Positions 3,973-50,207 of a DNA stretch of 64,000 bases are shown piece by piece (positions within the stretch are counted from its first letter, which is position 1; every line of letters starts with the position of its first letter). The notes beneath the pieces were generated by a model. That model had not been told where the DNA came from. It made no database searches and worked only from the letters and a program-made list of their open reading frames with translations. The stretch lies in NCBI RefSeq assembly GCF_003991155.1, contig NZ_CP031297.1. The stretch is one strand, 5' to 3'. The stretch is from Escherichia coli (GTDB lineage: Bacteria; Pseudomonadota; Gammaproteobacteria; Enterobacterales; Enterobacteriaceae). A program made the translations under genes and the position numbers.

Positions 3973-4581
3973 ATGAAAACGATAAAGCGGTTCATCGTAT
4001 GGGTGAATTACGGTCTTGAGGGTTGGAGCATTTTCGGATCGAGCGATGACTGGGATGAAGCGGTATCCATCCGTTCGGAAGCGATAGACGAATGCAATAT
4101 TGATGAGGAAGACATCATCTTGGCAGAAAACAAAAACGAGCTGGTGGTAAAACCTGCGGCCAAGCAAATGACGGAGTGGCACCGGGAACTGGAAGCCGTC
4201 CTTATGACCTTGGATGACTGCCAGATGGAATGTGACGGCATGACATGGGCAGTAAGCCACCTACTCAATGACGCGGGTGTACCTCATGACTGCATGTATG
4301 GTTTTGTGCGAAACGAACAGACCAAGGACATCGTGACACCGCATTTCTGGGTTGTCCTGGATGATGGGTGGTTGGTGGATCTGAGGCTACGCATGTGGCT
4401 TGGCGATCACGACAACATTCCTCACGGGGTATTCCATCCCGATAACGAGCCAGGATTTTTCTACAAGGGAGACCCCGTTCAAAACCATAAAGGGATGAGA
4501 CTGGGCAAAGCCGTCCTGGACATCATGACCGACGGAAAAATTTCACATGTGAAAGTTCCTGAACGACAAGACGGAGAGTAA
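3973..4581 (+). CDS. hypothetical protein
   Basis: 202-aa ORF with RBS; no recognisable motif. Confidence 0.5.
   Translation: MKTIKRFIVWVNYGLEGWSIFGSSDDWDEAVSIRSEAIDECNIDEEDIILAENKNELVVKPAAKQMTEWHRELEAVLMTLDDCQMECDGMTWAVSHLLNDAGVPHDCMYGFVRNEQTKDIVTPHFWVVLDDGWLVDLRLRMWLGDHDNIPHGVFHPDNEPGFFYKGDPVQNHKGMRLGKAVLDIMTDGKISHVKVPERQDGE
4540..4555. promoter_or_regulatory. parS-like palindrome TTTCACATGTGAAA (family copy, imperfect flanks)
   Basis: Core palindrome inside 3' end of ORF 3973..4581. Confidence 0.5.
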
Positions 4582-4585
4582 TAGC

Positions 4586-5107
4586 GTGGAATTTGATTAC
4601 GACAAGTCAGTATCAAACGCACATCTTGAGGCCGCAGGCTGGGGTATGGATGCCTTTAATCACTCCAACCCATTTGAGAGCCATGTCATCTATGTGCGTG
4701 ACTACCGCAACGATCACATCCGCCTGTTCACCATCAAGAAGGCTGACTTCGACACGATAAAGCTGCCGCTTCACCTTACCTCCGACATGCTGGCTTCGGT
4801 GATCGCTGAGTTCGTATCGAAGGCAGCAAAAGGGAAGTTGAATACGAAGGAGTCCGATACGCTGGCTCCTGCCTTGGTTGGCTATGCCAAATCAACAGAA
4901 ACCTACCGGAGCTGGCGGAGAGTGTCTGGAACAACAGAGCGATTGCATATGGTCATCAATATCTACGCGGGTTCTGGATTGCTGAGACCTTTCATCGCTC
5001 GGGCTCCTGAGACCGTCCTGACGACCCAAGAGCTACTGGTCTTCTCATCACAGGTTAAGAACATGGATGTATCCAATCATCCAGAGTGGTTTAGGGGCCT
5101 GAGGTAG
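4586..5107 (+). CDS. hypothetical protein (GTG start)
   Basis: 173-aa ORF. Confidence 0.45.
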   Translation: MEFDYDKSVSNAHLEAAGWGMDAFNHSNPFESHVIYVRDYRNDHIRLFTIKKADFDTIKLPLHLTSDMLASVIAEFVSKAAKGKLNTKESDTLAPALVGYAKSTETYRSWRRVSGTTERLHMVINIYAGSGLLRPFIARAPETVLTTQELLVFSSQVKNMDVSNHPEWFRGLR

Positions 5108-5109
5108 TC

Positions 5110-5631
5110 ATGAAGGCAGTTCTCTGGATATTCGTCCTTATCATTGCACCTTTCGTCATTGCGAAAGTGGACCAGTGGCGCAAACGCGGCATTGGAGACA
5201 CCTGGGCGTGGTGGAAATCAGAGAACATGCCTTATGAGCTGCGCTCGGCCACTCTGTTTTTATCCGAACAGGACATATCAACCACACAGCCGGTGCCCAT
5301 GCACGGCAGGGTTGATCAGGTGTACAAAGCCAAGAATGGGGTTCTCATTCCCTTGGACACCAAGCTGCGCCAGGTAAACCACATCTATGAGTCGGACATT
5401 ATCCAGCTCTCGGTTTACCGGGTAATTCTGTCACACAAGTACAAGGCACCCGTTGCCAAGTACGGCTATGTCCGAACCGTTGTTGAGACAGCGGACGGGG
5501 ATAGAGTCCGTTACATCAAGACAAACCTTCTCAGCGAAAAAGAAGTGGTCAAGTTGTGGCACCGCTATCAATCCATCCGTTCTGGTCAGGTAAAAACCTC
5601 CTGTTCCTGTGGCGGAAAGTTTCACATGTGA
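5110..5631 (+). CDS. hypothetical protein with N-terminal TM helix
   Basis: 173-aa ORF, RBS GAGG upstream. Confidence 0.5.
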   Translation: MKAVLWIFVLIIAPFVIAKVDQWRKRGIGDTWAWWKSENMPYELRSATLFLSEQDISTTQPVPMHGRVDQVYKAKNGVLIPLDTKLRQVNHIYESDIIQLSVYRVILSHKYKAPVAKYGYVRTVVETADGDRVRYIKTNLLSEKEVVKLWHRYQSIRSGQVKTSCSCGGKFHM

Positions 5632-5635
5632 AAGT
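5618..5635. promoter_or_regulatory. parS-like 18-bp palindrome AGTTTCACATGTGAAAGT
   Basis: Overlaps stop codon of ORF 5110..5631. Confidence 0.5.
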
Positions 5636-5727
5636 TCTGGATTGAATTAGGGTTGCCCGAATTGGGCAGCTAGGCGGGGTTGCATTTTTGAAAAGTCCTG
5701 TACGCTGGTTGGTATAGGAGGTGAATA

Positions 5728-6201
5728 GTGGCCCAGCTTAAACATAACCGCTTCGTCATGTTGGGGTCCTTGGTAGCGACGGTCGTAGCTGCTGCGAATG
5801 GCTTGAGTTTTCTCACCCTTATGGCTGGTGGAATGACCCTTATCCAGTTCATGGCTTGGAAGCAACAAGATGCTGTCCGTAGCCGGTTTAAAGCTGCGAA
5901 GGATGCGTTTGAAGCGTTGAACGTTATTGCGTTCGACAAGCACTGGGTAGGTTCAACCGCGACGGTCGCCAAAGTGTCGAACATGATCACTCCGCCCGAA
6001 CGACTGGATAAGCCCTGGGCGGTGCAAGTTCTGGCCGTAACCAAAGGTGGGACGTGGTTCGCAGTGGATCTGCAAGTGACCGGCACTGACAAGGTTCAGA
6101 TGCTTAGCCTCCACCAGCTTAGTGAAAAGGCGGCAAAGACCATGCTGGCCTTCGACCTCGAAGTGTATGAAAAATTTTTCGGAAAACCTGATGTTGCATG
6201 A
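5728..6201 (+). CDS. hypothetical membrane protein (GTG start)
   Basis: 157 aa, hydrophobic N-terminal segments, RBS AGGAGG. Confidence 0.45.
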   Translation: MAQLKHNRFVMLGSLVATVVAAANGLSFLTLMAGGMTLIQFMAWKQQDAVRSRFKAAKDAFEALNVIAFDKHWVGSTATVAKVSNMITPPERLDKPWAVQVLAVTKGGTWFAVDLQVTGTDKVQMLSLHQLSEKAAKTMLAFDLEVYEKFFGKPDVA

Positions 6202-6505
6202 GGACAATGTGATGGAAAAAGTCAAAAGCGTAGATGCCGTGGAGTTCACGGCAGCAGATAAGAAGGCGATGACCCATGCGGCATACGCCCAGTGTTTCTT
6301 CATTCTGGCCCAAGTGATGGCATTCCCTTCCCTAGGGGTGGCTGGCGCTATGGTTGCTGCTCTGTGCGGCATGATGCCGTGGTTGACCAAGTTCGCCAAA
6401 GAGGCTCCATCGAAAGCCTTTGGCATGGTGATGGCTTCACTCTGCCTTGCTCCTGTGTACGGGAAACTCTGTGAGCTGGTGGTCCACGCGATTCAGGGAG
6501 CTTGA
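6191..6505 (+). CDS. hypothetical membrane protein
   Basis: ~104 aa from internal ATG of ORF 6122..6505; hydrophobic. Confidence 0.35.
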   Translation: MLHEDNVMEKVKSVDAVEFTAADKKAMTHAAYAQCFFILAQVMAFPSLGVAGAMVAALCGMMPWLTKFAKEAPSKAFGMVMASLCLAPVYGKLCELVVHAIQGA

Positions 6506-6509
6506 GCTT

Positions 6510-7364
6510 ATGGGGGTAGTACGAGTTCCCTACCTCTTGGCTGAGCTGAAAGAACGCGGATGTGCTGATGAATCTGCTCTGGCGCAGGTTATGCAGCCTG
6601 GATGCCGAATTGGAGAGGAAGACCTACGGAAGTTGGCCGCAAATTTAGGGCTTGAAGTTTCTGAGCTGGCACCAGCGCCAGAGAACGCGGCCAACACCCG
6701 GTTCAAAGCAAAGCTGAGAGGAGGTTTGGCCTCCTTTCTTTTTGAGTACGACGGCTGTTTCCGACATGCCGAAGGCTCCAGCCATGCAGAAATGTTGGGT
6801 ATCGAGCAAGAAGACGATATTGGTCTTCCGAGTCGAGCTGCTGACGCCATGCTCCTGGAAAAGATGCTTTACCAGGTAATCGCTCGGGCTAAGTACATGC
6901 TCGGCAAAATCGACAGCAAGTTTGTCAGGTCAGAACAAGCAATCGAGTTCCGTGAGCAACTTGCTCCTGGGATCTTCAGGCCAGGGTACAGAGGTTTCCG
7001 ATTCAAGGAGGCTGCCGCTGGTGATTTGCCTACAGTCATGATTGACGGTCGGAAGTTCAATTGCGTTGCCAGTATAGCCAGAGCGCATGGACTTGATCCG
7101 GTAACGGTGCGTAGGCGCATTGCGGACACAAGGAAGGCCGCAGACAAACTCTCCAATGATGAGTGGAAACTCATCCTCGCCAAGAAAAAAGGTAAAGGGA
7201 AACCCTTCACCTATCTGGACAGGACCTACAGCAACATTGCCCAGTTCTGTCGTGAGCATCAGCTCAACACCAACCTTGTTTACCAGAAAGTCAAAGACCG
7301 GGCTGATAGCGCTGATGAAGAGTTCTGGGGACAGATAATCGAAACATGCAAAAGGAAAGACTAA
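6510..7364 (+). CDS. hypothetical protein
   Basis: ~284 aa from ATG 6510 of ORF 6447..7364. Confidence 0.45.
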   Translation: MGVVRVPYLLAELKERGCADESALAQVMQPGCRIGEEDLRKLAANLGLEVSELAPAPENAANTRFKAKLRGGLASFLFEYDGCFRHAEGSSHAEMLGIEQEDDIGLPSRAADAMLLEKMLYQVIARAKYMLGKIDSKFVRSEQAIEFREQLAPGIFRPGYRGFRFKEAAAGDLPTVMIDGRKFNCVASIARAHGLDPVTVRRRIADTRKAADKLSNDEWKLILAKKKGKGKPFTYLDRTYSNIAQFCREHQLNTNLVYQKVKDRADSADEEFWGQIIETCKRKD

Positions 7365-8323
7365 TGGCAGAAAACAAAGAGATCCCCTGGGAGAAAGAGC
7401 TCATTGAGAAGTACATGTTCACCCTGCATAAAGAGCAGGTGAAAGACCGGCGCTGGCGGACCATGTTGCGTGTGCTTCGCGCATCAGGTTTCGTGCTTCT
7501 CATGATCGGCTTCATCATTTTGGCATCTAATCCGGGTGGGATGCCGTGGCAAAGCGCCAAGGCTGGAGCCCCTCACACCGCGTATATCAACATCCGTGGT
7601 GAAATTGCTGCTGGCACACTGGCCGATGCTGATCACCTTATCCCGTCCATCCAAGCAGCATTCGACAACCCGAATTCACAAGCTGTCGTGCTTCGCATAA
7701 ACAGCCCTGGCGGTAGCCCGGTTCAAGCAGGACGGATTTATGAAGAAGTGAAGGCGCAGCGAGCCCTTCATCCGGAGAAAAAGGTCTACGCCATCATTGA
7801 TGACATCGGTGCCTCTGGCGGTTATTACATCGCCTCTGCTGCGGATGAAATCTATGCTGACCGCGCCAGTCTTGTCGGTTCTATCGGCGTCATTAGCTCA
7901 GGGTTTGGATTCACCGGCTTGATGGACAGGCTCGGCATCGAGCGCCGGGCAATCACTTCCGGAGAGCACAAAGCGCTTCTCGACCCATTCTCCCCTCTTA
8001 CCTCTGATATGAAGAAATTCTGGGAGGGCGTTCTATCGAAAACCCACCAGCAGTTCATCGAACGAGTGAAGGCTGGGCGGGGTGATCGACTGAAAGACGC
8101 CCCAGAGGTGTTTTCTGGATTGCTCTGGAACGGGGAGCAGGCCAAAGAAATTGGGCTGATTGATGGCCTGGGGAGTTTGAACTCCGTGGCGCGAGACGTC
8201 ATCCACCAGAGCAACTTGGTGGACTACACACCAACCGAAGACATCATCCGGCGACTGACCCAACGAGCGAAGCTCGAAGCCAGTTCCTTCGTGCAAGAAC
8301 TCAGCGCTGTGAAAGTTTACTGA
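7346..8323 (+). CDS. S49-family peptidase (SppA-like, signal peptide peptidase)
   Basis: 325 aa; TM anchor then IDDIGASGGYYIASAAD serine-nucleophile region typical of SppA/ClpP-fold S49. Confidence 0.8.
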   Translation: MQKERLMAENKEIPWEKELIEKYMFTLHKEQVKDRRWRTMLRVLRASGFVLLMIGFIILASNPGGMPWQSAKAGAPHTAYINIRGEIAAGTLADADHLIPSIQAAFDNPNSQAVVLRINSPGGSPVQAGRIYEEVKAQRALHPEKKVYAIIDDIGASGGYYIASAADEIYADRASLVGSIGVISSGFGFTGLMDRLGIERRAITSGEHKALLDPFSPLTSDMKKFWEGVLSKTHQQFIERVKAGRGDRLKDAPEVFSGLLWNGEQAKEIGLIDGLGSLNSVARDVIHQSNLVDYTPTEDIIRRLTQRAKLEASSFVQELSAVKVY

Positions 8324-8338
8324 TAGGAGCAGTTTGAC

Positions 8339-9199: not shown

Positions 9200-9201
9200 A
9201 A

Positions 9202-9219
9202 ACTTTCACATGTGAAAGT
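9202..9219. promoter_or_regulatory. parS-like 18-bp perfect palindrome ACTTTCACATGTGAAAGT
   Basis: Exact; 14 bp upstream of ORF 9233. Confidence 0.6.
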
Positions 9220-9232
9220 GGAGTGAGAACTG

Positions 9233-9661
9233 ATGATCAAGATTACAACTAAATTGGGGTGCCTTCTGGCGGGGCTGCTTGTCCTGTCGGCTTGCTCAAG
9301 CGTCCCTCAGACAAGCAACGAATACACGAAAGCCCTGGATGATACCAAACAGGTATGTGCTGCCTGTGCTCTGGTTGGTAATGACCTGCTGGTTGCCCTC
9401 AACAAGTCATGCGACAAACCCATAACCCCGGAGACTCTAACCAGCGTCATGAACAGTAACTCGATGTTTGCCGCCATGATGGCAATTAACTCCATTGGTG
9501 GAACCGACCTTTATCAGGTTTACCGTGATGCGGCTATCGACACCCTGCGATGCAATGAGATGGACACTTGGCCTGAACGGACCAAGGTGCGTTTCCAGCA
9601 GCCCGACATGCAAAAGGCGCTGGCCTTGAGGGTTTCTGTCAGACAGCAGAATGCAAATTAA
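9233..9661 (+). CDS. putative lipoprotein
   Basis: 142 aa; signal peptide with lipobox LSAC. Confidence 0.55.
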   Translation: MIKITTKLGCLLAGLLVLSACSSVPQTSNEYTKALDDTKQVCAACALVGNDLLVALNKSCDKPITPETLTSVMNSNSMFAAMMAINSIGGTDLYQVYRDAAIDTLRCNEMDTWPERTKVRFQQPDMQKALALRVSVRQQNAN

Positions 9662-9678
9662 CTTTCACATGTGAAAGT
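9661..9678. promoter_or_regulatory. parS-like 18-bp perfect palindrome ACTTTCACATGTGAAAGT
   Basis: Exact; overlaps stop of ORF 9233..9661, upstream of 9719. Confidence 0.6.
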
Positions 9679-9718
9679 CAGGTCCCTCAGGGGCCTGATT
9701 TCACTATGAGGTGTACCA

Positions 9719-10078
9719 ATGGAGTTACAAGAAGCAAAAAATGCTCTCGATAGCCTTCACCCCCACAAGGCCTCAGCCCCTTTGAGGCTTGTCATCCACC
9801 AGCCTGGAGGGATTGGTGGAACCCCTACCGTAGGGGTGAAAGCAATTCATGCTGGGTTTGATTGGGACAGCAACACCATCCTGATCTACCCGGAAGAGCA
9901 GCTCACCCGGTTGACGCCGGATGAGGTCGCCGCCATCACGAAGTCAGTATCGAAGGGACAGTCCTGGCATTCATATCAGCAGTTCAAGAAGTATCGGGAG
10001 CAGTTGGCCGAAGCCACGGAGGAAATTAATAGGCTCAGGGCTGAGCTGGGCAGGTATCAGAATAACGGGAGGGGGTAA
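9719..10078 (+). CDS. hypothetical protein
   Basis: 119-aa ORF. Confidence 0.45.
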
Positions 10079-11039: not shown

Positions 11040-11269
11040 TGATGATCATTGCAACGAAGAGCGGCTTGCTGGTGGCCGCAGAACTAATCAAGGAAGAGGC
11101 CGGGTACTGGCTACTACAGCCTCGTGACCAAAAGACGCCGGTCAGAGTGAATAAGCAAGATGACAATAAACGCGCTTTCACGCATATGGGAGACGCCCTT
11201 CGCTGGGCAGGTGATCCTGAGCTTGCAAAGCAGTTCGATGCCGAGGGGGAAGAACATGCAAATTCGTGA
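11039..11269 (+). CDS. small hypothetical protein
   Basis: 76-aa ORF, start overlaps previous stop. Confidence 0.3.
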   Translation: MMIIATKSGLLVAAELIKEEAGYWLLQPRDQKTPVRVNKQDDNKRAFTHMGDALRWAGDPELAKQFDAEGEEHANS

Positions 11270-14418: not shown

Positions 14419-14967
14419 ATGAACAACCTGCCCCTACTGCTCGACGCAAGAGAAGCCATTGACTACTACCACCAGCATCCAGACATGACTGATGCAGAAA
14501 AGGCCTATGTGGTCGCGTTCCTAAGCGGAGAGGGGCGCTCAAACAGTCAGATCAGAGAGGAACTGGGGATTGAGAAGGTATACACGGTTACACACCTGAA
14601 ACGCGCCGGTACGCTGTCGGAGGAAGAGCTCACACTCTGGCTCAGAAATCCACGCAAGATCACCCTGGGACATGTGAGAGCCGTGGCTAAGTTACCTATC
14701 AGCAAGAGAGAAAAGCTCCTGAGGGATCTCCTGCATACCAGGACACCGGTTCATACATATGAGGCGATAGCGAAGGGCAAAGAAGTGGATAGGGATGCTG
14801 ACATTAAGCGTCTGGAAACCCTGATGAGCGATGCGACGGGTAGGCCCATCAAAATTCGCTATAACCCCGCGAAGCGCTCCGGGGAGCTGACGCTGGGATT
14901 CTTCACGCTCGATGACCTGGATGACGTGTGCAAGGCTCTGGGGTTTGATCCAAGCGAGCAGATGTAA
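14419..14967 (+). CDS. hypothetical protein, possible HTH
   Basis: 182 aa; ITLGHVRAVAKLP segment reminiscent of ParB-type HTH (weak). Confidence 0.4.
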   Translation: MNNLPLLLDAREAIDYYHQHPDMTDAEKAYVVAFLSGEGRSNSQIREELGIEKVYTVTHLKRAGTLSEEELTLWLRNPRKITLGHVRAVAKLPISKREKLLRDLLHTRTPVHTYEAIAKGKEVDRDADIKRLETLMSDATGRPIKIRYNPAKRSGELTLGFFTLDDLDDVCKALGFDPSEQM

Positions 14968-14975
14968 ACCAGAAA

Positions 14976-14993
14976 ACTTTCACATGTGAAAGT
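14976..14993. promoter_or_regulatory. parS-like 18-bp perfect palindrome ACTTTCACATGTGAAAGT
   Basis: Exact; 9 bp after stop of ORF 14419..14967. Confidence 0.6.
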
Positions 14994-15015
14994 CTTGCAA
15001 GGTGTCTTTTTATTG

Positions 15016-15043
15016 TTTACAGTATCATAAAATGAATCTGTAA
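15016..15043. promoter_or_regulatory. 28-bp palindrome family copy (TTTACAGTATCATAAAATGAATCTGTAAA)
   Basis: Adjacent to parS-like site, upstream of ORF 15057. Confidence 0.5.
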
Positions 15044-16703: not shown

Positions 16704-16793
16704 CTCTCCTTTTCAACTTACACTTTTATCCTATCACAGCATTAAAAAATGCAACTGTGAAAGGGCGTTTTTCATTCAAAAAGAGGTGACACT

Positions 16794-17828: not shown

Positions 17829-17856
17829 ATTTACAGTATCACATAATGATACTATG
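17829..17856. promoter_or_regulatory. 28-bp palindrome family copy (TTTACAGTATCACATAATGATACTATGA)
   Basis: Upstream of ORF 17886. Confidence 0.45.
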
Positions 17857-17885
17857 ATGTTGTTAATTTACTTGGGGAGGCGCTT

Positions 17886-18149
17886 ATGCTCACTGCTAAA
17901 TGTATAGGGTGCGGATGCACCGATGATCACGCTTGTGTTGAAAACGGTCAACCGTGTCACTGGCTTCGCGTGAATAGAGTGGAAGGTATCGGGGTCTGCT
18001 CTTCGTGCCCGGATGCTCTCAATCAATTCGCATCGACCAGCCAGGAACAAGCAACTGGACAGGATGACTACCGGAACAGTCCAGAATGGAAGGATTTTTC
18101 ATCACGCATTGGTAATGCACTATGCGGGGGCCGGAGCAAAGCAAAGTAA
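17886..18149 (+). CDS. Cys-rich small protein
   Basis: 87 aa; CIGCGC ... CSSC. Confidence 0.4.
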   Translation: MLTAKCIGCGCTDDHACVENGQPCHWLRVNRVEGIGVCSSCPDALNQFASTSQEQATGQDDYRNSPEWKDFSSRIGNALCGGRSKAK

Positions 18150-18183: not shown

Positions 18184-18226
18184 TTACGGCATCACATTAT
18201 AAGCCTGTAAATGCTGAATCTGTAAT
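18184..18226. promoter_or_regulatory. degenerate 28-bp palindrome family copy
   Basis: TTACGGCATCACATTATAAGCCTGTAAATGCTGAATCTGTAA. Confidence 0.35.
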
Positions 18227-18241
18227 TGCCCAAAATGGGCG
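18227..18241. promoter_or_regulatory. TGCCCAAAATGGGCG motif (third cis-element family)
   Basis: GCCC-N5-GGGC inverted repeat. Confidence 0.4.
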
Positions 18242-18311
18242 TGAGCAGGGGCGGGGTGTGAGGTCGTTCTAAGGCAAAATACTTTGTACTGGCAGAACAA
18301 AGAAAGAATGA

Positions 18312-18329
18312 ACTTTCACATGTGAAAGT
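18312..18329. promoter_or_regulatory. parS-like 18-bp perfect palindrome ACTTTCACATGTGAAAGT
   Basis: Exact; 2 bp upstream of ORF 18332. Confidence 0.6.
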
Positions 18330-18331
18330 TT

Positions 18332-19276
18332 TTGGGGTACGGGATGGAACAAGCAATTCAAAGTTACTTGGCTGACGACCGGCAATATCAAGACAGGATT
18401 ACCGCAGCTCTCAGCCAGGTTGAAGAGAAAGGTGCAGAGTACGAAGCTCTTTGCCAACAGCGTGCTCAGTTGGGGATCTGGCAAAAAATTATAACGTTCT
18501 GGCAGTTTCGTCGAGACATCGCCGTTATACGTTCAGCACTAAAAGGCCATAACAGCGATTTGCGGTATTTGCGCCGTGGGAGAGACCAGCTCAAAGAGGG
18601 ATTGGTTTCTCGGGCCGTGAAGCAAGCGATTGACGGTAGCCAGATTCTGGAACGAATCACCCAAGCTCAAGATAGGCTTGACGCCGCATCTCGACTCCAC
18701 GAGAGCAACAAGCGACTGGTGGACATGGGGCAAAAAGCCTTACGTGAAATCAGTGAGGCCTCTTCCAGTATTTCATCAGCACAAACAATGGAGGTTCTCG
18801 ACCTTGTGACTGACAACAAGGGCATTTCCGTCATGTCGTCGATGTCAAACTCCTCGGCCAGCAGTGAAATAGACGATGCGAAGAGAGCTGTGAAAGCCTT
18901 CGCAAATGCGCTGGGGGATCATCGTGACATTGTGGGCTCACTGCACCACTCAATGGCAACTGAGTTTATCGATCTGGGTATGGACTTTGCCGGTTTGAAT
19001 GATGGTTTCGACTTTGGGAGCGTCTTCTCGCTGTTCAGCTTGTCGTCTGCCAGTTCCTCTCTGGACAAAGTAGAGTCTCGCGTTGAATCTCTGATGCCAG
19101 ATCTAAGACGAGCCGCCTCCAATTCGGCAGCAGAGTATGCCCGTGTTAACGAAGAGTTCTTTGGCCTAAAACAACAGGCCTGTTGCCAAGTGCATGAGTT
19201 GCTGGTGACAAATGGTATAGACGTGTCAGTCAAGCGCGTTGAGTCCGCCGTGAACAGCTACAGAGTTGGAAGGTGA
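18332..19276 (+). CDS. hypothetical protein (coiled-coil-rich)
   Basis: 314-aa ORF. Confidence 0.45.
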   Translation: MGYGMEQAIQSYLADDRQYQDRITAALSQVEEKGAEYEALCQQRAQLGIWQKIITFWQFRRDIAVIRSALKGHNSDLRYLRRGRDQLKEGLVSRAVKQAIDGSQILERITQAQDRLDAASRLHESNKRLVDMGQKALREISEASSSISSAQTMEVLDLVTDNKGISVMSSMSNSSASSEIDDAKRAVKAFANALGDHRDIVGSLHHSMATEFIDLGMDFAGLNDGFDFGSVFSLFSLSSASSSLDKVESRVESLMPDLRRAASNSAAEYARVNEEFFGLKQQACCQVHELLVTNGIDVSVKRVESAVNSYRVGR

Positions 19277-19277
19277 T

Positions 19278-19307
19278 ATTTACAGCATCATAAAATGAAC
19301 TTATGAT
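19278..19307. promoter_or_regulatory. 28-bp palindrome family copy (TTTACAGCATCATAAAATGAACTTATGATG)
   Basis: Upstream of AAA+ ATPase gene. Confidence 0.5.
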
Positions 19308-25216: not shown

Positions 25217-25244
25217 TTTACAGTATCAAAAAGTGATGCTATAA
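25217..25244. promoter_or_regulatory. 28-bp palindrome family copy (TTTACAGTATCAAAAAGTGATGCTATAAA)
   Basis: Upstream of ParB-like gene 25274. Confidence 0.5.
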
Positions 25245-25273: not shown

Positions 25274-26212
25274 ATGGCTGTTATCAACTCACTCCGCGCT
25301 CTCAAAGGCGTAACCGCCCCCGAAGAACTGAAAAAAGGGGATGGATTCACTATCTCTCCTCAGCTTCTGCTGGAGGAAGAAGGGTTTAACACCCGTGGCG
25401 CTTTCTGCGAGGACTACTACGAGCGCCCGGACATCAAAGCTGGTATTCGAGTGCTGGCCGATGCTTACAAGCGTGGCGACTATGTTCCGCCGATCATCGT
25501 CAAAGTTATCGACGGAAAGGTGTATGTCCGTGAAGGTCATCGCCGTCGCCGCGCCATCCTGCTTGCTATAGAGGAAGGTGCCGACATCCAGTTCGTGCAG
25601 GTCGTAGAGCACAAGGGCGATGAAGCCGAACAGAGCCTTCTGATCGCCACCAGCAACGATGGGCTCCCTCTTTCTCCACTTGAGCGAGCCGTGATCTACG
25701 CTCGGCTTGCAAACTGGGGGTGGAGCGACCAGATGATTGCCCAACGTGTTGGCCGCTCGGCTGAGCACGTTCGTATCGCCCGTGCCCTTTTGGAGATGCC
25801 TCTGGAACTGAAACGGATGATTCAGGAAGGCTCTGTGGCTGCCACCTACGCTCAGGAGCTCTACAACGAGCACGGCACCAACGCTGTTGAGATCCTGAAA
25901 AAGGCGCAGGAAGAACAGGCCAGTGGCAATGACGGCAAGAAGGCCCCGAAAAAACTGACCAAAAAGTCTGTCGAGAAAGGTCCCCGCCTGGGCAAAAAGG
26001 TGGTTGAAGCCATGCACCGAGGCGTGAGCTCTATTACCAGTCGTCTGGACAACATCAAGCCGAACGATGACGGTGAAACGTTCACCCTTACCCTGAGCCG
26101 GGAAGATGTTGATGCGTTTCAGGAGCTGAAAGCCAAGCTGGCGGAGCTGGAGCCCAAAACTGACGAGTCCAATGAAGACCAGCAAGAGCTGGATTTGGCG
26201 GGTAATCAGTAA
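25274..26212 (+). CDS. ParB/Srx-domain protein (second, orphan ParB-like; KorB-like candidate)
   Basis: 312 aa; ParB N-domain motif VREGHRRRRAIL, HTH region, Lys-rich C-terminus; no adjacent ParA. Confidence 0.7.
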   Translation: MAVINSLRALKGVTAPEELKKGDGFTISPQLLLEEEGFNTRGAFCEDYYERPDIKAGIRVLADAYKRGDYVPPIIVKVIDGKVYVREGHRRRRAILLAIEEGADIQFVQVVEHKGDEAEQSLLIATSNDGLPLSPLERAVIYARLANWGWSDQMIAQRVGRSAEHVRIARALLEMPLELKRMIQEGSVAATYAQELYNEHGTNAVEILKKAQEEQASGNDGKKAPKKLTKKSVEKGPRLGKKVVEAMHRGVSSITSRLDNIKPNDDGETFTLTLSREDVDAFQELKAKLAELEPKTDESNEDQQELDLAGNQ

Positions 26213-29326: not shown

Positions 29327-29354
29327 ATTGCAGTATCATTTTATGATCGCTACA
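29327..29354. promoter_or_regulatory. 28-bp palindrome family copy (ATTGCAGTATCATTTTATGATCGCTACAA)
   Basis: Upstream of parA, abutting parS-like site. Confidence 0.5.
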
Positions 29355-29355
29355 A

Positions 29356-29373
29356 TCTTTCACATGTGAAAGT
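29356..29373. promoter_or_regulatory. parS-like palindrome TCTTTCACATGTGAAAGT
   Basis: 17/18 match; 42 bp upstream of parA start. Confidence 0.6.
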
Positions 29374-29414
29374 TTGGGGGTGGTCTTGATCACCTGCGAG
29401 AAACCAAAATAGAG

Positions 29415-30206
29415 GTGGGTATGGCAAAAGTAATCAGCTTCGCCAACCAGAAAGGCGGAGTGGGTAAGAGTACCCTCTGTATCCAGCAGGCCTTTTATCT
29501 GGCGTTACAGAAGAAAAAGAAAGTGCTGGTCTTGGATATGGATGGTCAGGGGAACACGTCCTCTCGACTGGCCCCCAGACGAGAGCTTGAGGATGGTGAC
29601 TACGAGCCCATCCTCACTGGAACCAAAACCGCAGAGCTGTTCGCTTACGAGCTGGACGGCATTGAGGTCATGCACTGCCCTTGCGGTGCAGACCTCATTC
29701 ATACGCCGAAGAATGACCCGGATCTGTTTGAGATGGAGGCTGTGCCTCTTGACCAAGCCATGAATCCGGCTCGCCATTTGGCTGAGCTGTTTGAGAACTA
29801 CGACTACGTGCTGATTGATTGTCCGCCTAGCCTCGGCAGAAAGCTGGTGGCAGCGTTGGTGATGTCTACCCATGTGGCATGTCCGGTAAAGCTCTCTGGC
29901 TTCGCTGTGGACGGCGTAGAAGGTCTCCTGAACACGATTATTGGTGTGCGCGAGGCATACAACCAAAATTTGGAGATCCTGGGCATCGTGATCAACGACA
30001 TGGACCGCTCTGTCAATCACGACAAAGCCCTCAAGTCGCTGGAGAACACAGTTCCGGATCTGCTGTTTGAGAACAAAATTATGCACCGGCCTCCGCTCGA
30101 TACGGCGACGACTGATGGCATCCCTGTCTGGGAGCTTCGCTATGGACATGTCGCGGCCAAAGAGGTTGAGGCGGTGTTGGAAGAACTATTAGAGAAGGTG
30201 GGCTAA
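29415..30206 (+). CDS. parA: ParA partition ATPase (Soj/MinD superfamily)
   Basis: 263 aa; deviant Walker A FANQKGGVGKSTL. Confidence 0.9.
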   Translation: MGMAKVISFANQKGGVGKSTLCIQQAFYLALQKKKKVLVLDMDGQGNTSSRLAPRRELEDGDYEPILTGTKTAELFAYELDGIEVMHCPCGADLIHTPKNDPDLFEMEAVPLDQAMNPARHLAELFENYDYVLIDCPPSLGRKLVAALVMSTHVACPVKLSGFAVDGVEGLLNTIIGVREAYNQNLEILGIVINDMDRSVNHDKALKSLENTVPDLLFENKIMHRPPLDTATTDGIPVWELRYGHVAAKEVEAVLEELLEKVG

Positions 30207-30209: not shown

Positions 30210-31391
30210 ATGGCATTGAACAATTTAAAAGGCCTGTCCGAACTTGCTAAAGCCGCCAAAGGCAAGAAAGGCAAAGAGGTTCTTACCGTACCTGTTGACG
30301 ACGTTGTATCCAAGGTCCAGGTTCGTAAGCGCTTCCGTAACATTGAAGAGCTGGCGGCAACCTTGCTGACCGAAGGGCAGCAATCTCCGATCATCGTGTT
30401 CCCGAAGAATGAAGAAGGCAAGTTCGTCATCCAAAAAGGGGAGCGGCGTTGGAGAGCGTGTAAACACGCTGGTATCGAGACCATTGACCTGGTGGTGAAT
30501 GATAAGGTCCAGAACAATTTGGACGAGACTGCTGGTGAGCTGATCGAAAACATCCAGCGGGATGACTTGACTCCGGTAGAGATTGCCGAGGCGTTAAACC
30601 TGTTTATTGAAGAAGGTTGGAAGCAAAAGGATATTGCTGATCGGCTCGGTAAGAATATCACTTTCGTATCTACGCATCTGTCGTTGCTCAAGCTACCTGA
30701 CTGTGTGCGTGAGTTATACGATAATGAAGTATGTTCTGATACAGAGACCTTGAATAACCTTCGTCTCTTGTTCGATCTGAATGAAGAAAGATGTCGCGCC
30801 GTCTGCGCGGTGGCTATGTCTGACGGGATTACTCGTAAACAAAGCCGTGAGCTGCTGAATGATGCCAAACGTATCAAAGACGAAATGGAAAAAGGCCCAC
30901 TGACTGGCTCCCACCAGAATGATGAGCTTGGCGCTGGCAACACCGACGAGCAATCCCTCAACTCGGGTGGGGATGGTACGTCGGAACAAACCGGGAATGA
31001 CGACCTGAACCTTGCCCAGGAGGAACTGGAAGGGGGTAAAAATTCCAATGGTCAGGACGATGATGACGAAGACCCTTTGCGTGATGAAGAGGGTGAGCAC
31101 AAAGATCCTGTCAAGCAGCCAGATAACAGCGGCAAGGACAAAGATGAAGAAGGCGGTGATGCTCTTCCTCCTCTGCCGAAGGACAAGGAATGGAAGAACG
31201 TCCGGGCTGACAGTTTGATTTTTGCTGTCAACGTTAACCTGGATGGCGAGACCAAACGTGGAGTCATCATGACCGACCGTGTTGCTCTGGTTCCGTCTAC
31301 TGTCTGGGTTAAAACGCTCGATGGCGAAGGCAAGGAAAAGCATGTTCATGTGCCTGTGTCAGACATTGAACTCCTGAGTGTCGAAGGCTAA
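30210..31391 (+). CDS. parB: ParB partition protein with acidic C-terminal extension
   Basis: 393 aa; ParB motif KGERRWRA, HTH; immediately downstream of parA. Confidence 0.85.
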   Translation: MALNNLKGLSELAKAAKGKKGKEVLTVPVDDVVSKVQVRKRFRNIEELAATLLTEGQQSPIIVFPKNEEGKFVIQKGERRWRACKHAGIETIDLVVNDKVQNNLDETAGELIENIQRDDLTPVEIAEALNLFIEEGWKQKDIADRLGKNITFVSTHLSLLKLPDCVRELYDNEVCSDTETLNNLRLLFDLNEERCRAVCAVAMSDGITRKQSRELLNDAKRIKDEMEKGPLTGSHQNDELGAGNTDEQSLNSGGDGTSEQTGNDDLNLAQEELEGGKNSNGQDDDDEDPLRDEEGEHKDPVKQPDNSGKDKDEEGGDALPPLPKDKEWKNVRADSLIFAVNVNLDGETKRGVIMTDRVALVPSTVWVKTLDGEGKEKHVHVPVSDIELLSVEG

Positions 31392-31433: not shown

Positions 31434-31712
31434 GTGAATATGAAGATCTCACAGGACATGAAAAGAAAATTTGCTTTGGTGAATGCCCTGTCTAAAACGG
31501 AGAAGCCAAGTCTCCAAGACCTTCACAAGGCAACAAATATTCCTGAATCAACGATCAAGAGACAGTTGTCTGCCCTGCGTGATGAGTTCGGAATGAATAT
31601 CTTGTTCGTCAGGGAGTCTACCGGCGAACGAGGTGCCACCGGCTACTACATGCTGACAGACTGGGGGATCTTAGACAGGTCTTCGTTCTTGAACCGGTAC
31701 GGAAAACTGTAA
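31434..31712 (+). CDS. small protein, possible winged-helix regulator
   Basis: 92 aa; PSLQDLHKATNIPESTIKRQLSALRD. Confidence 0.4.
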   Translation: MNMKISQDMKRKFALVNALSKTEKPSLQDLHKATNIPESTIKRQLSALRDEFGMNILFVRESTGERGATGYYMLTDWGILDRSSFLNRYGKL

Positions 31713-32704: not shown

Positions 32705-32740
32705 TATTTATGATTATTACAGCATCATAAAATAATATCA
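32705..32740. promoter_or_regulatory. 28-bp palindrome family copy (TTACAGCATCATAAAATAAT core)
   Basis: Divergent intergenic region 32434..32952. Confidence 0.45.
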
Positions 32741-32770
32741 AGAGACAATAAAACGATACCAAGAAACAAA

Positions 32771-32788
32771 ACTTTCACATGTGAAAGT
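32771..32788. promoter_or_regulatory. parS-like 18-bp perfect palindrome ACTTTCACATGTGAAAGT
   Basis: Exact; divergent intergenic region. Confidence 0.6.
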
Positions 32789-32847
32789 CTCCCCGCTGTC
32801 CACCTCGCACACTCCAAACGCCCAAACGCCCAAATAACTTGTCTATC

Positions 32848-32862
32848 TGCCCAAAATGGGCG
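32848..32862. promoter_or_regulatory. TGCCCAAAATGGGCG motif
   Basis: Identical to copy at 18227. Confidence 0.4.
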
Positions 32863-32921
32863 CGTAAGCGTCCGATAGAAAGTAATTGTTAGTGAGATAT
32901 TGACTACACGGAATATGGCTA

Positions 32922-32952
32922 TATCATAGAATCATAAAATGATGCTGTAAAA
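32922..32952. promoter_or_regulatory. 28-bp palindrome family copy (ATCATAGAATCATAAAATGATGCTGTAAAAG)
   Basis: Immediately upstream of ORF 32953. Confidence 0.5.
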
Positions 32953-45616: not shown

Positions 45617-47478
45617 CAATGAGTTATGACCCGCTCGCCTACGAGATGCCGTGGCGGCCCAACTATGAAAAAAATGCTGTAGCAGGCTGGCTTGCCGCCT
45701 CCGGCGCGGCTTTGGCCGTAGAGCAAGTCAGCACGATGCCTCCGGAGCCCTTCTATTGGATGACGGGGATCTGTGGCGTGATGGCGATGGCTCGTTTGCC
45801 AAAGGCTATCAAACTTCACCTGCTCCAAAAGCATTTGAAGGGGCGTGATCTGGAGTTTATTTCTATTGCGGAGCTCCAAAAGTACATCAAGGACACGCCG
45901 GACGATATGTGGCTTGGTAGTGGGTTCCTGTGGGAAAACCGCCATGCCCAGCGCGTGTTTGAGATCCTGAAACGCGACTGGACTTCCATCGTAGGGAGAG
46001 AGTCCACGGTCAAAAAGGTTGTCCGGAAGATACAGGGTAAGAAAAAGGAGCTGCCAATCGGCCAGCCCTGGATTCACGGGGTAGAACCCAAAGAAGAGAA
46101 GCTGATGCAGCCACTCAAGCACACTGAGGGGCATTCGCTGATCGTTGGGACCACCGGCTCGGGCAAGACCCGTATGTTCGACATCCTGATTTCACAGGCC
46201 ATTCTGCGTGGGGAAGCCGTGATCATCATAGACCCGAAAGGGGATAAGGAGATGCGGGACAATGCACGACGTGCCTGTGAAGCTATGGGGCAGCCGGAAA
46301 GATTCGTCTCATTTCATCCAGCATTCCCGGAAGAGTCGGTGCGTATCGACCCTCTGCGTAACTTCACCCGCGTGACTGAAATTGCAAGTCGTTTGGCAGC
46401 GTTGATCCCGTCCGAAGCAGGGGCCGACCCGTTCAAATCATTTGGATGGCAGGCACTGAACAACATCGCTCAGGGCTTGGTCATCACTCATGATCGTCCC
46501 AACCTGACAAAGCTCCGCCGATTCCTTGAAGGTGGCGCTGCTGGCTTGGTCATCAAGGCCGTTCAGGCTTACTCAGAGCGAGTTATGCCCGACTGGGAGG
46601 CAGAAGCAGCGGCTTATTTGGAGAAAGTCAAAAACGGTTCGCGTGAGAAGATCGCTTTCGCGTTGATGAAGTTCTACTACGACATCATCCAACCTGAGCA
46701 CCCAAACTCTGATCTGGAAGGCTTGCTGTCGATGTTCCAGCACGACCAAACCCACTTCTCCAAGATGGTGGCGAACCTCCTGCCGATCATGAATATGCTG
46801 ACGTCCGGGGAGCTAGGCCCTCTGCTGTCTCCAGACTCATCTGATCTGAGCGACGAACGCCAGATCACTGATTCCGCAAAAATCATCAACAACGCTCAAG
46901 TTGCTTATCTGGGGCTCGACTCCCTGACCGACAACATGGTTGGTAGTGCTATGGGGTCCATCTTCCTGTCAGACCTGACAGCGGTTGCCGGTGACAGATA
47001 CAACTACGGCGTCAACAACAGACCCGTAAATATCTTTGTTGATGAGGCTGCTGAGGTGATCAACGACCCGTTCATCCAGCTCCTGAACAAAGGTCGCGGT
47101 GCGAAACTTCGTCTTTTCGTTGCAACTCAGACTTTTGCTGACTTCGCAGCTCGACTGGGTAGCAAAGACAAAGCGCTCCAAGTGTTGGGGAACATCAACA
47201 ACACGTTTGCTCTGCGTATCGTCGATGGTGAAACACAGGAGTATATCGCAGATAACTTGCCGAAGACCCGGCTCAAGTACGTCATGCGGACTCAAGGCCA
47301 GAACTCGGATGGCAAGGAGCCCATTATGCACGGAGGCAACCAAGGCGAGCGTTTGATGGAGGAGGAAGCTGATCTGTTCCCAGCCCAGTTATTGGGAATG
47401 CTTCCGAACCTGGAATACATAGCCAAAATTTCAGGCGGAACAATCGTAAAAGGCCGTCTGCCCATATTGACCCAGTAA
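45613..47478 (+). CDS. traD: type IV coupling protein (TraD/VirD4-like)
   Basis: 621 aa; two N-terminal TM helices, Walker A GTTGSGKTR, Walker B IFVDEAAE. Confidence 0.85.
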   Translation: MTMSYDPLAYEMPWRPNYEKNAVAGWLAASGAALAVEQVSTMPPEPFYWMTGICGVMAMARLPKAIKLHLLQKHLKGRDLEFISIAELQKYIKDTPDDMWLGSGFLWENRHAQRVFEILKRDWTSIVGRESTVKKVVRKIQGKKKELPIGQPWIHGVEPKEEKLMQPLKHTEGHSLIVGTTGSGKTRMFDILISQAILRGEAVIIIDPKGDKEMRDNARRACEAMGQPERFVSFHPAFPEESVRIDPLRNFTRVTEIASRLAALIPSEAGADPFKSFGWQALNNIAQGLVITHDRPNLTKLRRFLEGGAAGLVIKAVQAYSERVMPDWEAEAAAYLEKVKNGSREKIAFALMKFYYDIIQPEHPNSDLEGLLSMFQHDQTHFSKMVANLLPIMNMLTSGELGPLLSPDSSDLSDERQITDSAKIINNAQVAYLGLDSLTDNMVGSAMGSIFLSDLTAVAGDRYNYGVNNRPVNIFVDEAAEVINDPFIQLLNKGRGAKLRLFVATQTFADFAARLGSKDKALQVLGNINNTFALRIVDGETQEYIADNLPKTRLKYVMRTQGQNSDGKEPIMHGGNQGERLMEEEADLFPAQLLGMLPNLEYIAKISGGTIVKGRLPILTQ

Positions 47479-47488
47479 GAGCAGAGCT

Positions 47489-48073
47489 ATGTGTGACAAG
47501 AAGTATAGAAATTACGAGGTAGCCATCATGGTCGATGTGAACCCTTTCGACAGGGTTATGAATGAATTGAAAAGTCGTGGCCGCAAGAACGCTCACATCC
47601 TGAGCATCCTCCAATTCGACTGGCCTGCATCGGAGGCCATCATCGAGAAGCTGAGCTGCTACATCACAGACGGGATTAAGGCTAATCAGGAGCCTGTGAT
47701 TTACCCGATCATTGAAGAAGCTCTGCATCGCTACAGCCAGCTCGTGTTTCATGAGCAGAGAGAGAAATATGAAGACCCGGCCAGAATTGGGGCATTTCTG
47801 GAAACCCTGATCACCGAAACCTGCCGGGCGTTGGAAGTGCAAATTGTCGATAGTGGCGGTGATTCATGGTCTGTCGATTCAGGAGAGTCGTTCTCACTGT
47901 GGCTTTCTTCCCATCCAGGAGAACTATCCATTAACCCGCAGCCCCATGAGGATGAGACCTCTTTGCGTGGCTTGCTGTATGAGCTCATCACCTGTGAGAG
48001 CGTGAAAACTGTTTTAAGGAGAACCGACTATGAAGAAGCCGTGGTTGCTGGTCGCATGGCTGCTGGTTATTGA
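47489..48073 (+). CDS. hypothetical protein in transfer region
   Basis: 194-aa ORF. Confidence 0.4.
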   Translation: MCDKKYRNYEVAIMVDVNPFDRVMNELKSRGRKNAHILSILQFDWPASEAIIEKLSCYITDGIKANQEPVIYPIIEEALHRYSQLVFHEQREKYEDPARIGAFLETLITETCRALEVQIVDSGGDSWSVDSGESFSLWLSSHPGELSINPQPHEDETSLRGLLYELITCESVKTVLRRTDYEEAVVAGRMAAGY

Positions 48074-48659
48074 GTTGCTGGCAATATTGCTGCTGATCCC
48101 TGGCGACTGGACAGACAGAGCCATCAAAAGGGAATCCGAGCTGGTGGAACAGAGTCTTGGTGTCGAAGCAAGAGACTGGATACAGAACAAAGCATCTACC
48201 TGGTTCAGGTCGAGCGTTATTGATTCAGGATTCTATGAGGGGATGTACCAAACGCTGATCCCATCAGAAGAGGAGCGCCAGAAGTCCAAGGGGATGCAGG
48301 ACATGGGCAAGGGCTGGTTTGTGTGGGTCAAAGGCCGCATGGAAGCCTTTGTCAACGTCATTTACCAGTTCTACACAAGGTTGGCACTGTTAGCCGCGTG
48401 GGCTCCCTATATGCTGATCCTGTTCGTACCTGCGGTATATGACGGGATGATGACATGGCGAATTAAGCGGACCAACTTCGATTATGCGAGTCCGGTTCTC
48501 CATCGTTACAGCGTTCGCGGAACGATGTACCTGATGGCCGGATTGTTCATCGCGTTCTTCATCCCCATAGCGCTCGATCCGGTTGTCATCCCGATGACAA
48601 TGATGACGTGCTGTGTCCTGGTTGGCCTGACGTTCGGCAACCTCCAGAAACGGGTATAG
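48030..48659 (+). CDS. T4SS-associated inner-membrane protein
   Basis: 209 aa, multiple TM helices, RBS GGAG. Confidence 0.45.
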   Translation: MKKPWLLVAWLLVIELLAILLLIPGDWTDRAIKRESELVEQSLGVEARDWIQNKASTWFRSSVIDSGFYEGMYQTLIPSEEERQKSKGMQDMGKGWFVWVKGRMEAFVNVIYQFYTRLALLAAWAPYMLILFVPAVYDGMMTWRIKRTNFDYASPVLHRYSVRGTMYLMAGLFIAFFIPIALDPVVIPMTMMTCCVLVGLTFGNLQKRV

Positions 48660-48668
48660 GGAGGGAGG

Positions 48669-49115
48669 ATGAGCTACTCCGTTATAAATCAAGATGGGGT
48701 GCATCTGTGCGACATCCCATTGAACGTCTACCAGGTGATACGTCGCCAATCCTTGTCTGCGTTGTGGCTTTACTGGGCGCAGAGCTTGAATTTGGTGAAG
48801 GTGCTCATTGCTTGCGTCGGAAAGATGATCTTTGTGATGCCGGTAATGTGGTTCTGGGTGCTGGTGGTGTGCCGCTTGGTTGAACCAGAACGTATCTCAG
48901 ACGTGTCAGGACTTATCTCTCCGGACGTGATCGGGTGGGCCGCTGGTGCGGCCATCACCCTCATTATCTTTTCCGTATTTACACGCCCAGCGTTGTACGG
49001 ATACCACAACTTTTTCAAGCAGCATATTTGCTCAAGAGTAAAGCAAGTAACGCCGGAACTCAGAACAGTCACTGGGCCACTGTTCTTTTACCGAAACGAA
49101 ATTGGAACGATATAG
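48669..49115 (+). CDS. T4SS-associated membrane protein
   Basis: 148 aa, hydrophobic. Confidence 0.45.
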   Translation: MSYSVINQDGVHLCDIPLNVYQVIRRQSLSALWLYWAQSLNLVKVLIACVGKMIFVMPVMWFWVLVVCRLVEPERISDVSGLISPDVIGWAAGAAITLIIFSVFTRPALYGYHNFFKQHICSRVKQVTPELRTVTGPLFFYRNEIGTI

Positions 49116-49124
49116 AGAGGAACC

Positions 49125-49502
49125 ATGAAAGTAACTAATAGACTCCAACTGCTGGCACTGGGGCTGTGTATAGCCGGTACTGCCATCGCGGCTCCTGATG
49201 TGCTCAATGACGACGCAAAGCTCAAGAACCTTGAGAAGGTGTGTCCCGACTGTCAGATGGTGGCAAAAGATGTACTCAATCTGCGGGTTGAAAACTGCCA
49301 GCTCAAAGACACTTCCAGTGCAATGATGATTGGCACCATGCAAAATGACCCTATGTTTTCGTTTATGCTGGCTGTACACACAGCGGCAGGCTCGGAGGCA
49401 TACAAAACGGTAGTTGGTGCCGCTGGCAACCATGTTGACTGTGAAAACCCGTTGAACTGGATCAAGCTGACCCAGCAAGCGATTAAAGGTGGCAAAGTCT
49501 AA
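49125..49502 (+). CDS. secreted Cys-containing protein in transfer region
   Basis: 125 aa; signal peptide MKVTNRLQLLALGLCIAGTAIA. Confidence 0.45.
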   Translation: MKVTNRLQLLALGLCIAGTAIAAPDVLNDDAKLKNLEKVCPDCQMVAKDVLNLRVENCQLKDTSSAMMIGTMQNDPMFSFMLAVHTAAGSEAYKTVVGAAGNHVDCENPLNWIKLTQQAIKGGKV

Positions 49503-50164
49503 TGCGTAAGAGAGATTTCTTTTTTGGAGAGGTGTATGAGGGGAGTGGAGGAGCCACTCTACGACTGAGTGATATGGAACCATTGGCAAGAAAAGTGTCG
49601 GCAGAGTTCTTCACTGCACAACTGAACCGTATACTGAAAGAGCATGACGGTCAGTTGACGCTCAGCGATGGAACGTCGTACCCCAGCTTTTGGAGCTTCA
49701 TCGACAAGGTTGATCCAGAGCAGGTTGGTTTCGTGGAGATCTACGCTCGGCAGGATGTTAACGATAATGTTGAAGCGACACTGGCGTGTGACATCGTTTT
49801 GGTAAATGGTGTGATCACCGTTAAACCTCACTGGTGTGCTTACAAAGACATCAGGGCTGACGAAGTGATTTCCACCTTACTGGTGCCTTTGCATTTGAAG
49901 GCTCTCCAGGGTAAGGCTTACATTCGCTGGGATGATGGTGAAACCGAACCTCTGTTACAAAACGACGACTATCAGGCTGAACTTGAAAATGTGTTTAGTG
50001 TTTCCAAGTACCCATCAGCCATGAGCTGGGGCGATACAGCAGACCAGAAGGTTAAGCAGTACAAGATGGACCTTGAGTGCGCCACAGATGTTGGTCGTCG
50101 AGGTGTCTCATCAGAGCAAGCATGGGATGCTTATCGAGAACTCCGTTACAATAGAACAGTGTGA
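49502..50164 (+). CDS. hypothetical protein
   Basis: 220-aa ORF. Confidence 0.4.
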   Translation: MRKRDFFFGEVYEGSGGATLRLSDMEPLARKVSAEFFTAQLNRILKEHDGQLTLSDGTSYPSFWSFIDKVDPEQVGFVEIYARQDVNDNVEATLACDIVLVNGVITVKPHWCAYKDIRADEVISTLLVPLHLKALQGKAYIRWDDGETEPLLQNDDYQAELENVFSVSKYPSAMSWGDTADQKVKQYKMDLECATDVGRRGVSSEQAWDAYRELRYNRTV

Positions 50165-50189
50165 AACAAGCGGCCATCGGCCGCTTTGA

Positions 50190-50207
50190 ACTTTCACATG
50201 TGAAAGT
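50190..50207. promoter_or_regulatory. parS-like 18-bp perfect palindrome ACTTTCACATGTGAAAGT
   Basis: Exact; intergenic ahead of T4SS operon. Confidence 0.6.

Follow-up and report, generated by a model that had tools for sequence, protein, structure and literature searches.

What is one 18-bp perfect palindrome doing, in nine dispersed copies, in a 64,000-nt stretch of DNA from Escherichia coli (contig NZ_CP031297.1, here called the window)? The window is, base for base, positions 1-64000 of NC_019380.1, the IncC plasmid pR148 of Aeromonas hydrophila. The original prediction, made from the sequence by itself, likened the palindromes to parS centromere sites and their dispersal to that of KorB operators. 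The palindromes are the already described parS of IncC plasmids, published in 2024, and the present finding adds nothing to that description. Very probably they form the IncC centromere, which is bound by a KorB-type ParB and moved by ParA for segregation while the parA operon is autorepressed.

We scanned the window for the palindrome, ACTTTCACATGTGAAAGT, tolerating up to 3 mismatches. All nine predicted copies were present, at 4539 (given earlier as ~4540), 5618, 9202, 9661, 14976, 18312, 29356, 32771, and 50190. Six are exact and three have a single mismatch, always within the two left-most bases (AA.., AG.., TC..). All nine agree fully in a 14-bp core, TTTCACATGTGAAA, and no extra degenerate core copy was found in the window below 3 mismatches. 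Dinucleotide-preserving shuffles of the window gave a mean of 0.06 matches and a maximum of 1; none of 100 reached nine. The invariant core and its flanking bases make up a 22-bp inverted repeat, AAACTTTCACATGTGAAAGTTT, whose coordinates are used below. No strand is assigned to these copies, and CDS stands for coding sequence.

4537..4558, parS copy AAAATTTCACATGTGAAAGTTC, within the 3' end of CDS 3973-4581
5616..5637, parS copy spanning the stop codon of CDS 5110-5631, with an AcaCD box 12 bp downstream
9200..9221, parS copy between a dsbA-like CDS (end 9199) and CDS 9233-9661
9659..9680, parS copy beginning on the stop codon of CDS 9233-9661; CDS 9719 lies 40 nt on
14974..14995, parS copy, the 18-bp motif 9 bp past the stop of a 182-aa ParB-related open reading frame (ORF); abuts a promoter-like TTGCAA-17-TACAGT
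18310..18331, parS copy; CDS 18344-19276 begins 14 nt downstream
29354..29375, parS copy AATCTTTCACATGTGAAAGTTT in the parA promoter, its first bases belonging to the -10 box
32769..32790, parS copy 48 bp upstream of an AcaCD box, at the vcrx035/036 divergent promoter
50188..50209, parS copy 41 bp upstream of an AcaCD box, at a vcrx068-type promoter before the traL transfer genes

The motif centres are intergenic in seven of the nine copies, although coding sequence makes up 92% of the window (binomial P = 7e-7), which bears out the description of the copies as mostly intergenic. Their placement immediately upstream of operon starts was borne out in part: the copies at 9202, 9661, and 18312 lie in gaps of 13-40 nt within long co-directional gene arrays and have no recognisable promoter. 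A scan of the full replicon, proposed earlier as a check, found 14 cores across pR148, the five beyond the window at 71251, 86647, 147441, 153530, and 160258. None of the 14 is in the transposon/integron resistance region at 100-138 kb; all are in the backbone. The right flank (...AAAGT) is intact in 13 of the 14 copies and the left (ACTTT...) in 9.

Plasmid pR148 has 165,906 bp, an IncC replicon, a MOBH relaxase, and mating pair formation type MPF_F. Genes in the window are almost all on the + strand, and GC skew is positive across its whole length. There are 1105 plasmid records that match a 10-kb stretch with the par genes, most of them with an identity of at least 99%, and all are conjugative plasmids (Enterobacterales, Vibrio, Aeromonas). 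We also used 30 nt around the centre of the consensus as a query against 5426 complete E. coli genomes. It matched in 144 of them, with 2898 of the 3016 match places (96%) on plasmids. Positive genomes have a median of 24 places and therefore 12 sites, since a palindrome matches both strands.

A motif found this often could be a generic repeat of the host, a repetitive extragenic palindromic (REP), enterobacterial repetitive intergenic consensus (ERIC), or miniature inverted-repeat transposable element (MITE)-like sequence, or a chance palindrome without plasmid-specific function. The repetition itself would fit, as would isolated exact copies in unrelated contexts, such as a tRNA gene of Heimdallarchaeota. 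This explanation is refuted by the 0.06 copies expected by chance and by the restriction of the motif to plasmid backbones, and we consider it hardly conceivable. The motif is missing from about 97% of complete E. coli genomes and is otherwise almost only plasmid-borne, so it is not equally frequent in host chromosomes. The accessory resistance region of pR148 is free of it, and we found no common repeat structure in the flanks of the copies.

A full-text search with the core sequence returned a single paper, by Muranyi, Szabo, Acsai, and Kiss in Nucleic Acids Research (NAR) in 2024 (PMC10954446). Plasmid R55 carries 14 copies, at the parA promoter and at 13 other places in the backbone, and IncC plasmids mostly have 12-14 copies each (PMC10954446). 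Salmonella genomic island 1 (SGI1) has the same 22-bp inverted repeat in its direct repeats (PMC10954446). Purified ParB, encoded by the second gene of the parAB053 operon, specifically shifted three probes with the 22-bp repeat in an electrophoretic mobility shift assay (EMSA), and a 4-bp insertion in the centre abolished binding (PMC10954446). The 14-bp core alone was not bound, and therefore the AAAC/GTTT flanks matter (PMC10954446). An SGI1 minireplicon bearing parS was stabilised only when ParA and ParB were both supplied; ORF 053 was dispensable for this, and added parS copies destabilised the plasmid, that is, caused incompatibility (PMC10954446). Whole IncC plasmids repressed the parA promoter (PparA) 8-11-fold while ParAB053 alone repressed it weakly, from which the authors inferred an extra backbone repressor (PMC10954446). 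Mutating parS in the SGI1 direct repeat DR1 changed replication control, and a global regulatory role of ParB was raised as a hypothesis under investigation (PMC10954446). Our literature search found no later papers on ParB as a global regulator of IncC plasmids.

The list of genes neighbouring parS in R55 (PMC10954446) maps one-to-one onto the 14 sites of pR148. The two plasmids share the core, the 22-bp repeat, the copy number, and the neighbour genes. In both the right GT flank is the better kept and one copy overlaps the PparA -10 box. Nothing substantive differs between them, pR148 being another IncC plasmid. The paper is silent on the relation to canonical parS half-sites, on the motifs for cytidine triphosphate (CTP) binding, and on a second palindrome that lies in the PparA spacer (PMC10954446). 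ParB binding, stabilisation by ParA with ParB, incompatibility, and PparA repression were each demonstrated experimentally (PMC10954446). The centromere reading put forward from the sequence thus names a motif already proven in R55, and a reading of that kind can bring to light a genuine centromere and operator system. IncC plasmids are important vehicles of resistance genes, those for carbapenemases included, and both their stable inheritance and their incompatibility with SGI1-type islands are set by parS.

The par operon in the window, with its promoter, is as follows.

29328..29356, + strand, PparA, TTGCAG-17-TACAAT, from a relaxed promoter scan
29421..30206, + strand, parA, small Walker-type partition ATPase (NCBIfam ParA_partition E 8e-26; annotation)
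30210..31391, + strand, parB, KorB-type (Pfam KorB, ParB_N, HTH_ParB)
31440..31712, + strand, ORF 053, small winged-helix-like protein, third gene of the operon (annotation; weak match to PDB 3KE2)

As in a ParABS system, parA and parB are adjacent, with NCBIfam matches to ParA_partition and parB_part and Pfam matches to ParB_N, HTH_ParB, and KorB. The 393-aa ParB matches Pfam KorB (PF08535) with E 4e-38, ParB_N with 1e-12, and HTH_ParB with 2e-10. Its closest solved relative is RK2 KorB (8QA8, E 9e-21; also 1R71), with Noc and Spo0J next. Its nucleotide-binding motifs, KGERRWRACK and ENIQRDDLTP, can be aligned with those of KorB, Noc, and Spo0J, and GERRWR and ENIQRDDL are invariant among gammaproteobacterial ParB homologues. 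Homologues with 84%, 65%, and 51% identity occur together with the same 18-mer, and in these the helix-turn-helix (HTH)/KorB domain is the best-kept region (98%, 86%, and 76%). Between the KorB domain and the C-terminal domain, a linker encoded at 30950-31200 is a long acidic stretch of low complexity. It is shortened or replaced in the homologues from Xenorhabdus, Photorhabdus, and Paraglaciecola, and the last ~70 residues are conserved.

In the mechanism that we propose, dimers of the KorB-type ParB recognise the 22-bp inverted repeat, and the ParA ATPase moves the resulting ParB-DNA complexes, which segregates the plasmid copies when the cell divides. Conservation of GERRxR and ENxQRxxL suggests that IncC ParB likely loads onto DNA as a CTP-dependent sliding clamp. 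The relaxed promoter scan, convincing only at PparA and weaker at 14974 and 160254, placed the final bases of the PparA -10 box on the first bases of the parS repeat. The A-to-T mismatch of the copy at 29356 arises because the -10 box overlaps the repeat. A promoter had been predicted 64 bp upstream of parA (PMC10954446), in agreement with PparA here. ParB bound over the -10 box would repress its own operon, and the overlap fits the published autorepression. The distance of 42 bp from this copy to parA given previously is true for a GTG start at 29415; from the RefSeq ATG at 29421 the gap is 47 nt.

Some points weigh against this account. The assignment in pR148 comes from sequence identity with other IncC plasmids, nucleation of a partition complex in vivo by each of the 14 copies is putative, and CTP binding and sliding by IncC ParB are predicted. 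A relative on a plasmid-like contig of a Paraglaciecola metagenome-assembled genome (MAG; locus L015) encodes ParA with 81% and ParB with 51% identity and has two exact parS copies. Its parA promoter has no recognisable parS though other copies are kept, and therefore not all members of the wider family autoregulate through parS.

Which protein occupies the sites is a question of its own, as the window encodes two further ParB-related proteins.

25274..26212, + strand, second ParB homologue, 312 aa, candidate DNA-binding protein (Pfam HTH_ParB)
14419..14967, + strand, third ParB-related ORF, 182 aa (Pfam ParB_C, HTH_ParB)

The 312-aa protein and the partition ParB are the two homologues named in the original prediction, and domain and structure matches recovered both. 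The 312-aa protein matches only HTH_ParB in Pfam (4e-8) and Spo0J in PDB (1e-7), and has an arginine patch, GHRRRRA. The 182-aa ORF, absent from the earlier list, matches ParB_C (2e-8; C-terminal dimerisation) and weakly HTH_ParB (0.026), without an N-terminal CTP-binding domain. It is probably the "R55_24/parB-like regulator" of the published work (PMC10954446). One of these two might be the main binder in vivo, with the partition ParB secondary. Both have a ParB-type HTH, the 182-aa ORF ends 9 bp before a site, and two relatives (L019 and L113) have a site ~200 bp upstream of a homologue of the 312-aa gene. Full repression of PparA also requires an additional backbone factor. However, the ParB of parAB053 binds specifically in EMSA, ParA and ParB suffice for stabilisation, and the HTH regions of both candidates are only distantly related to that of ParB. 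We therefore regard such a role for either as improbable. That the ParB homologues could bind the palindromes holds, by the R55 EMSA (PMC10954446), for the type encoded at 30210-31391; the product of 25274-26212 remains a candidate.

The sites might instead be mainly global operators of the KorB kind, at which loaded ParB would silence or tune nearby promoters, those of AcaCD-activated transfer operons among them, with one or a few sites serving partition. This overlaps with the centromere account and is quite possible, if somewhat on the improbable side. The IncC ParB has the KorB DNA-binding domain, RK2 KorB is its nearest solved relative, and the sites are dispersed as are the 12 KorB operators of RK2 (PMC10954446). 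In RK2/RP4, as in IncC plasmids, a parA-type gene is followed by the gene of a ParB with a KorB domain, about a dozen palindromes are scattered over the backbone both near and far from promoters, and the protein autoregulates its own operon. The operators themselves differ. That of RK2/RP4 is the 13-bp TTTAGCSGCTAAA, whereas the IncC site is 18-22 bp long with an unrelated sequence. RK2 also has a KorA partner and an OA-type operator, with none identified for IncC, while several IncC sites adjoin boxes for AcaCD, an FlhDC-type activator, which has no counterpart in RK2.

To search for AcaCD boxes, we used a weight matrix built from the published AcaCD sites of SGI1 and MGIVmi1. Of the copies in the window, that at 5616 has a box 12 bp downstream, that at 32769 one at 48 bp, and that at 50188 one at 41 bp.

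5650..5677, + strand, AcaCD box of a vcrx012-type promoter (weight-matrix match); first gene 5728-6201
32839..32866, - strand, near-palindromic AcaCD box of the vcrx036-type operon, start 32962
50251..50278, + strand, AcaCD box of a vcrx068-type promoter (weight-matrix match)

A fourth box lies 10-15 bp downstream of the pR148 copy at 153526. The four promoters correspond to vcrx012, vcrx036, vcrx068, and traF of Carraro et al. 2014, with vcrx012 in Table S3 (PMC4207636). When the published box-to-start offsets are transferred, the four parS centres lie ~85-130 bp upstream of the transcription starts. In other genomes an AcaCD-like box is found within ~120 bp of 31 of 174 parS sites, compared to 3.7% of background windows, and in 28 of the 31 parS is on the promoter-distal side of the box. 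ParB at copies just upstream of AcaCD boxes may thus modulate transfer-gene promoters in a KorB-like manner. These neighbourhoods favour an operator function, as do the published repression of PparA and the altered replication control of the SGI1 DR1 mutant. The repression data are, however, confined to PparA, which ParAB053 alone represses weakly. Neither a generic nor the relaxed scan showed a recognisable promoter next to the copies at 4539, 9202, 9661, and 18312. The generic scan, for sigma-70 promoters and terminators over 4-19 kb, gave fewer promoter-like matches than shuffled sequence and left the sites unexplained.

One further AcaCD-like box, at 18218-18245 on the - strand (matrix score 18.7), is 64 bp upstream of the parS copy at 18310 and is not matched by any entry in the AcaCD table published for pVCR94. 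Judged by box coordinates, pVCR94 appears to lack ~13 kb between the vcrx012 and vcrx036 promoters.

Canonical chromosomal parS is a 16-bp palindrome, TGTTNCACGTGAAACA, bound by Spo0J/ParB. Its half-site core, TTTCAC/GTGAAA, is that of the IncC site, as the original prediction held. Both systems also have multiple dispersed copies and a ParB with an HTH domain and an N-terminal GERRxR motif. The IncC centre is 2 bp longer (CAC-AT-GTG versus CAC-GTG), and its outer bases are AC/GT rather than TG/CA. The canonical 16-mer itself is not above chance in the window, with 3 matches at 3 mismatches against 2.0 expected. A distant system in Cupriavidus pampae (NZ_CAJZAG010000021.1) uses both CACATGTG and CACGCGTG centres. 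Three exact 18-mers lie ahead of its parA-parB pair, whose products share only 27% and 33% identity with those of IncC, and a variant with a GC centre, ACTTTCACGCGTGAAAGT, stands just before parA. Use of the half-site with a 2-bp centre therefore extends to a much broader clade of ParB proteins, and the centre is variable.

We surveyed one genome per prokaryotic species (298 Gb) for exact matches, where ~4 would be expected by chance, and found at least 120 loci. Among the matches listed, the loci are overwhelmingly from Gammaproteobacteria. Many are IncC-like backbones with 40-100% protein identity, in Vibrio, Shewanella, Photorhabdus, Xenorhabdus, and the Paraglaciecola MAG. At the position orthologous to the copy at 4539, the core is invariant although the flanking DNA is nearly unalignable and the host protein is 46-53% identical. 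Eight exact matches in Heimdallarchaeota MAGs were rejected, as they come from one orthologous tRNA gene. This gene is 106 nt long and intron-containing (Rfam tRNA, 48 bits) and was missed by ARAGORN. Its 18-mer apparently forms an intron hairpin at the anticodon arm, an unrelated coincidence.

In SGI1 the same 22-bp repeat, bound by IncC ParB, lies 10-25 bp upstream of AcaCD boxes. These copies belong to a parasitic island without parAB, whereas those in the window are the plasmid's own sites. Twelve other loci have a single exact parS ~100-700 bp from a distant mobI homologue (25-32% identity) in chromosomal islands of Aliidiomarina, Marinobacter, Alcanivorax, Halomonas, Idiomarina, and others, with restriction-modification cargo. 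The site at one of them (L021) has a type I restriction-modification system and a resolvase as flanking genes. The pattern suggests that MobI-type mobilizable islands mimic parS, beyond the published SGI1 case. An island of Marinobacter vinifirmus (NZ_NEFY01000003.1, 2499-11938) adjoins trmE/mnmE, carries int, xis, and a high-scoring AcaCD-like box, and has seven parS cores in 4.4 kb compared to two in SGI1. Mimicry of parS thus appears much wider than SGI1, taking in MobI-type and trmE-integrated islands of marine Gammaproteobacteria.

The second palindrome, ACAGYATCATAAAATGATRCTGT, is 23 bp long with an inner dyad ATCAT-N3-ATGAT. It occupies the spacer between the -35 and -10 boxes of similar promoters, which look like TTTACA ... 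TATGAT/TGTAAA.

3746-3768, 15019-15041, 16736-16758, 17833-17855, 19282-19304, copies of the second palindrome in the window
25220-25242, 29330-29352, 32719-32741, 32926-32948, further copies in the window
71706, 160164, 160716, copies beyond the window in pR148

The window has nine matches, where 0.28 would be expected, and the whole plasmid about twelve. Three copies are 6-32 bp from parS: in PparA (6 bp), beside 14974, and beside 32769. The palindrome also precedes the 312-aa parB-like gene (25220) and acr1-acaDC (160716). In the Paraglaciecola relative L015 it is kept upstream of parA, where the parS copy is not, and it is also conserved upstream of the ParB-like gene in Alcanivorax and in a Rhodospirillaceae MAG. 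A literature search on it returned unrelated papers only and no description. None of the small ORFs downstream of its promoters could be assigned as DNA-binding with PHROGs, NCBIfam, or Pfam.

This second palindrome may be the operator of the extra PparA repressor inferred in the published work (PMC10954446). ParB would then be one half of a two-operator circuit like that of KorB and KorA, and parS mimicry would extend beyond SGI1; as a whole this is a tentative and rather doubtful proposal. In such a circuit, a backbone repressor at ACAGYATCATAAAATGATRCTGT would cooperate with ParB loaded at parS and link partition, maintenance genes, and AcaCD-driven transfer. One ORF behind such a promoter, at 17886-18149 on the + strand, is missing from the gene table of the record; it encodes a cysteine-rich protein of 87 aa with no Pfam or PHROG match, and follows the strongest promoter-like site of the region, TTTACA-17-TATGAT (17830-17858).

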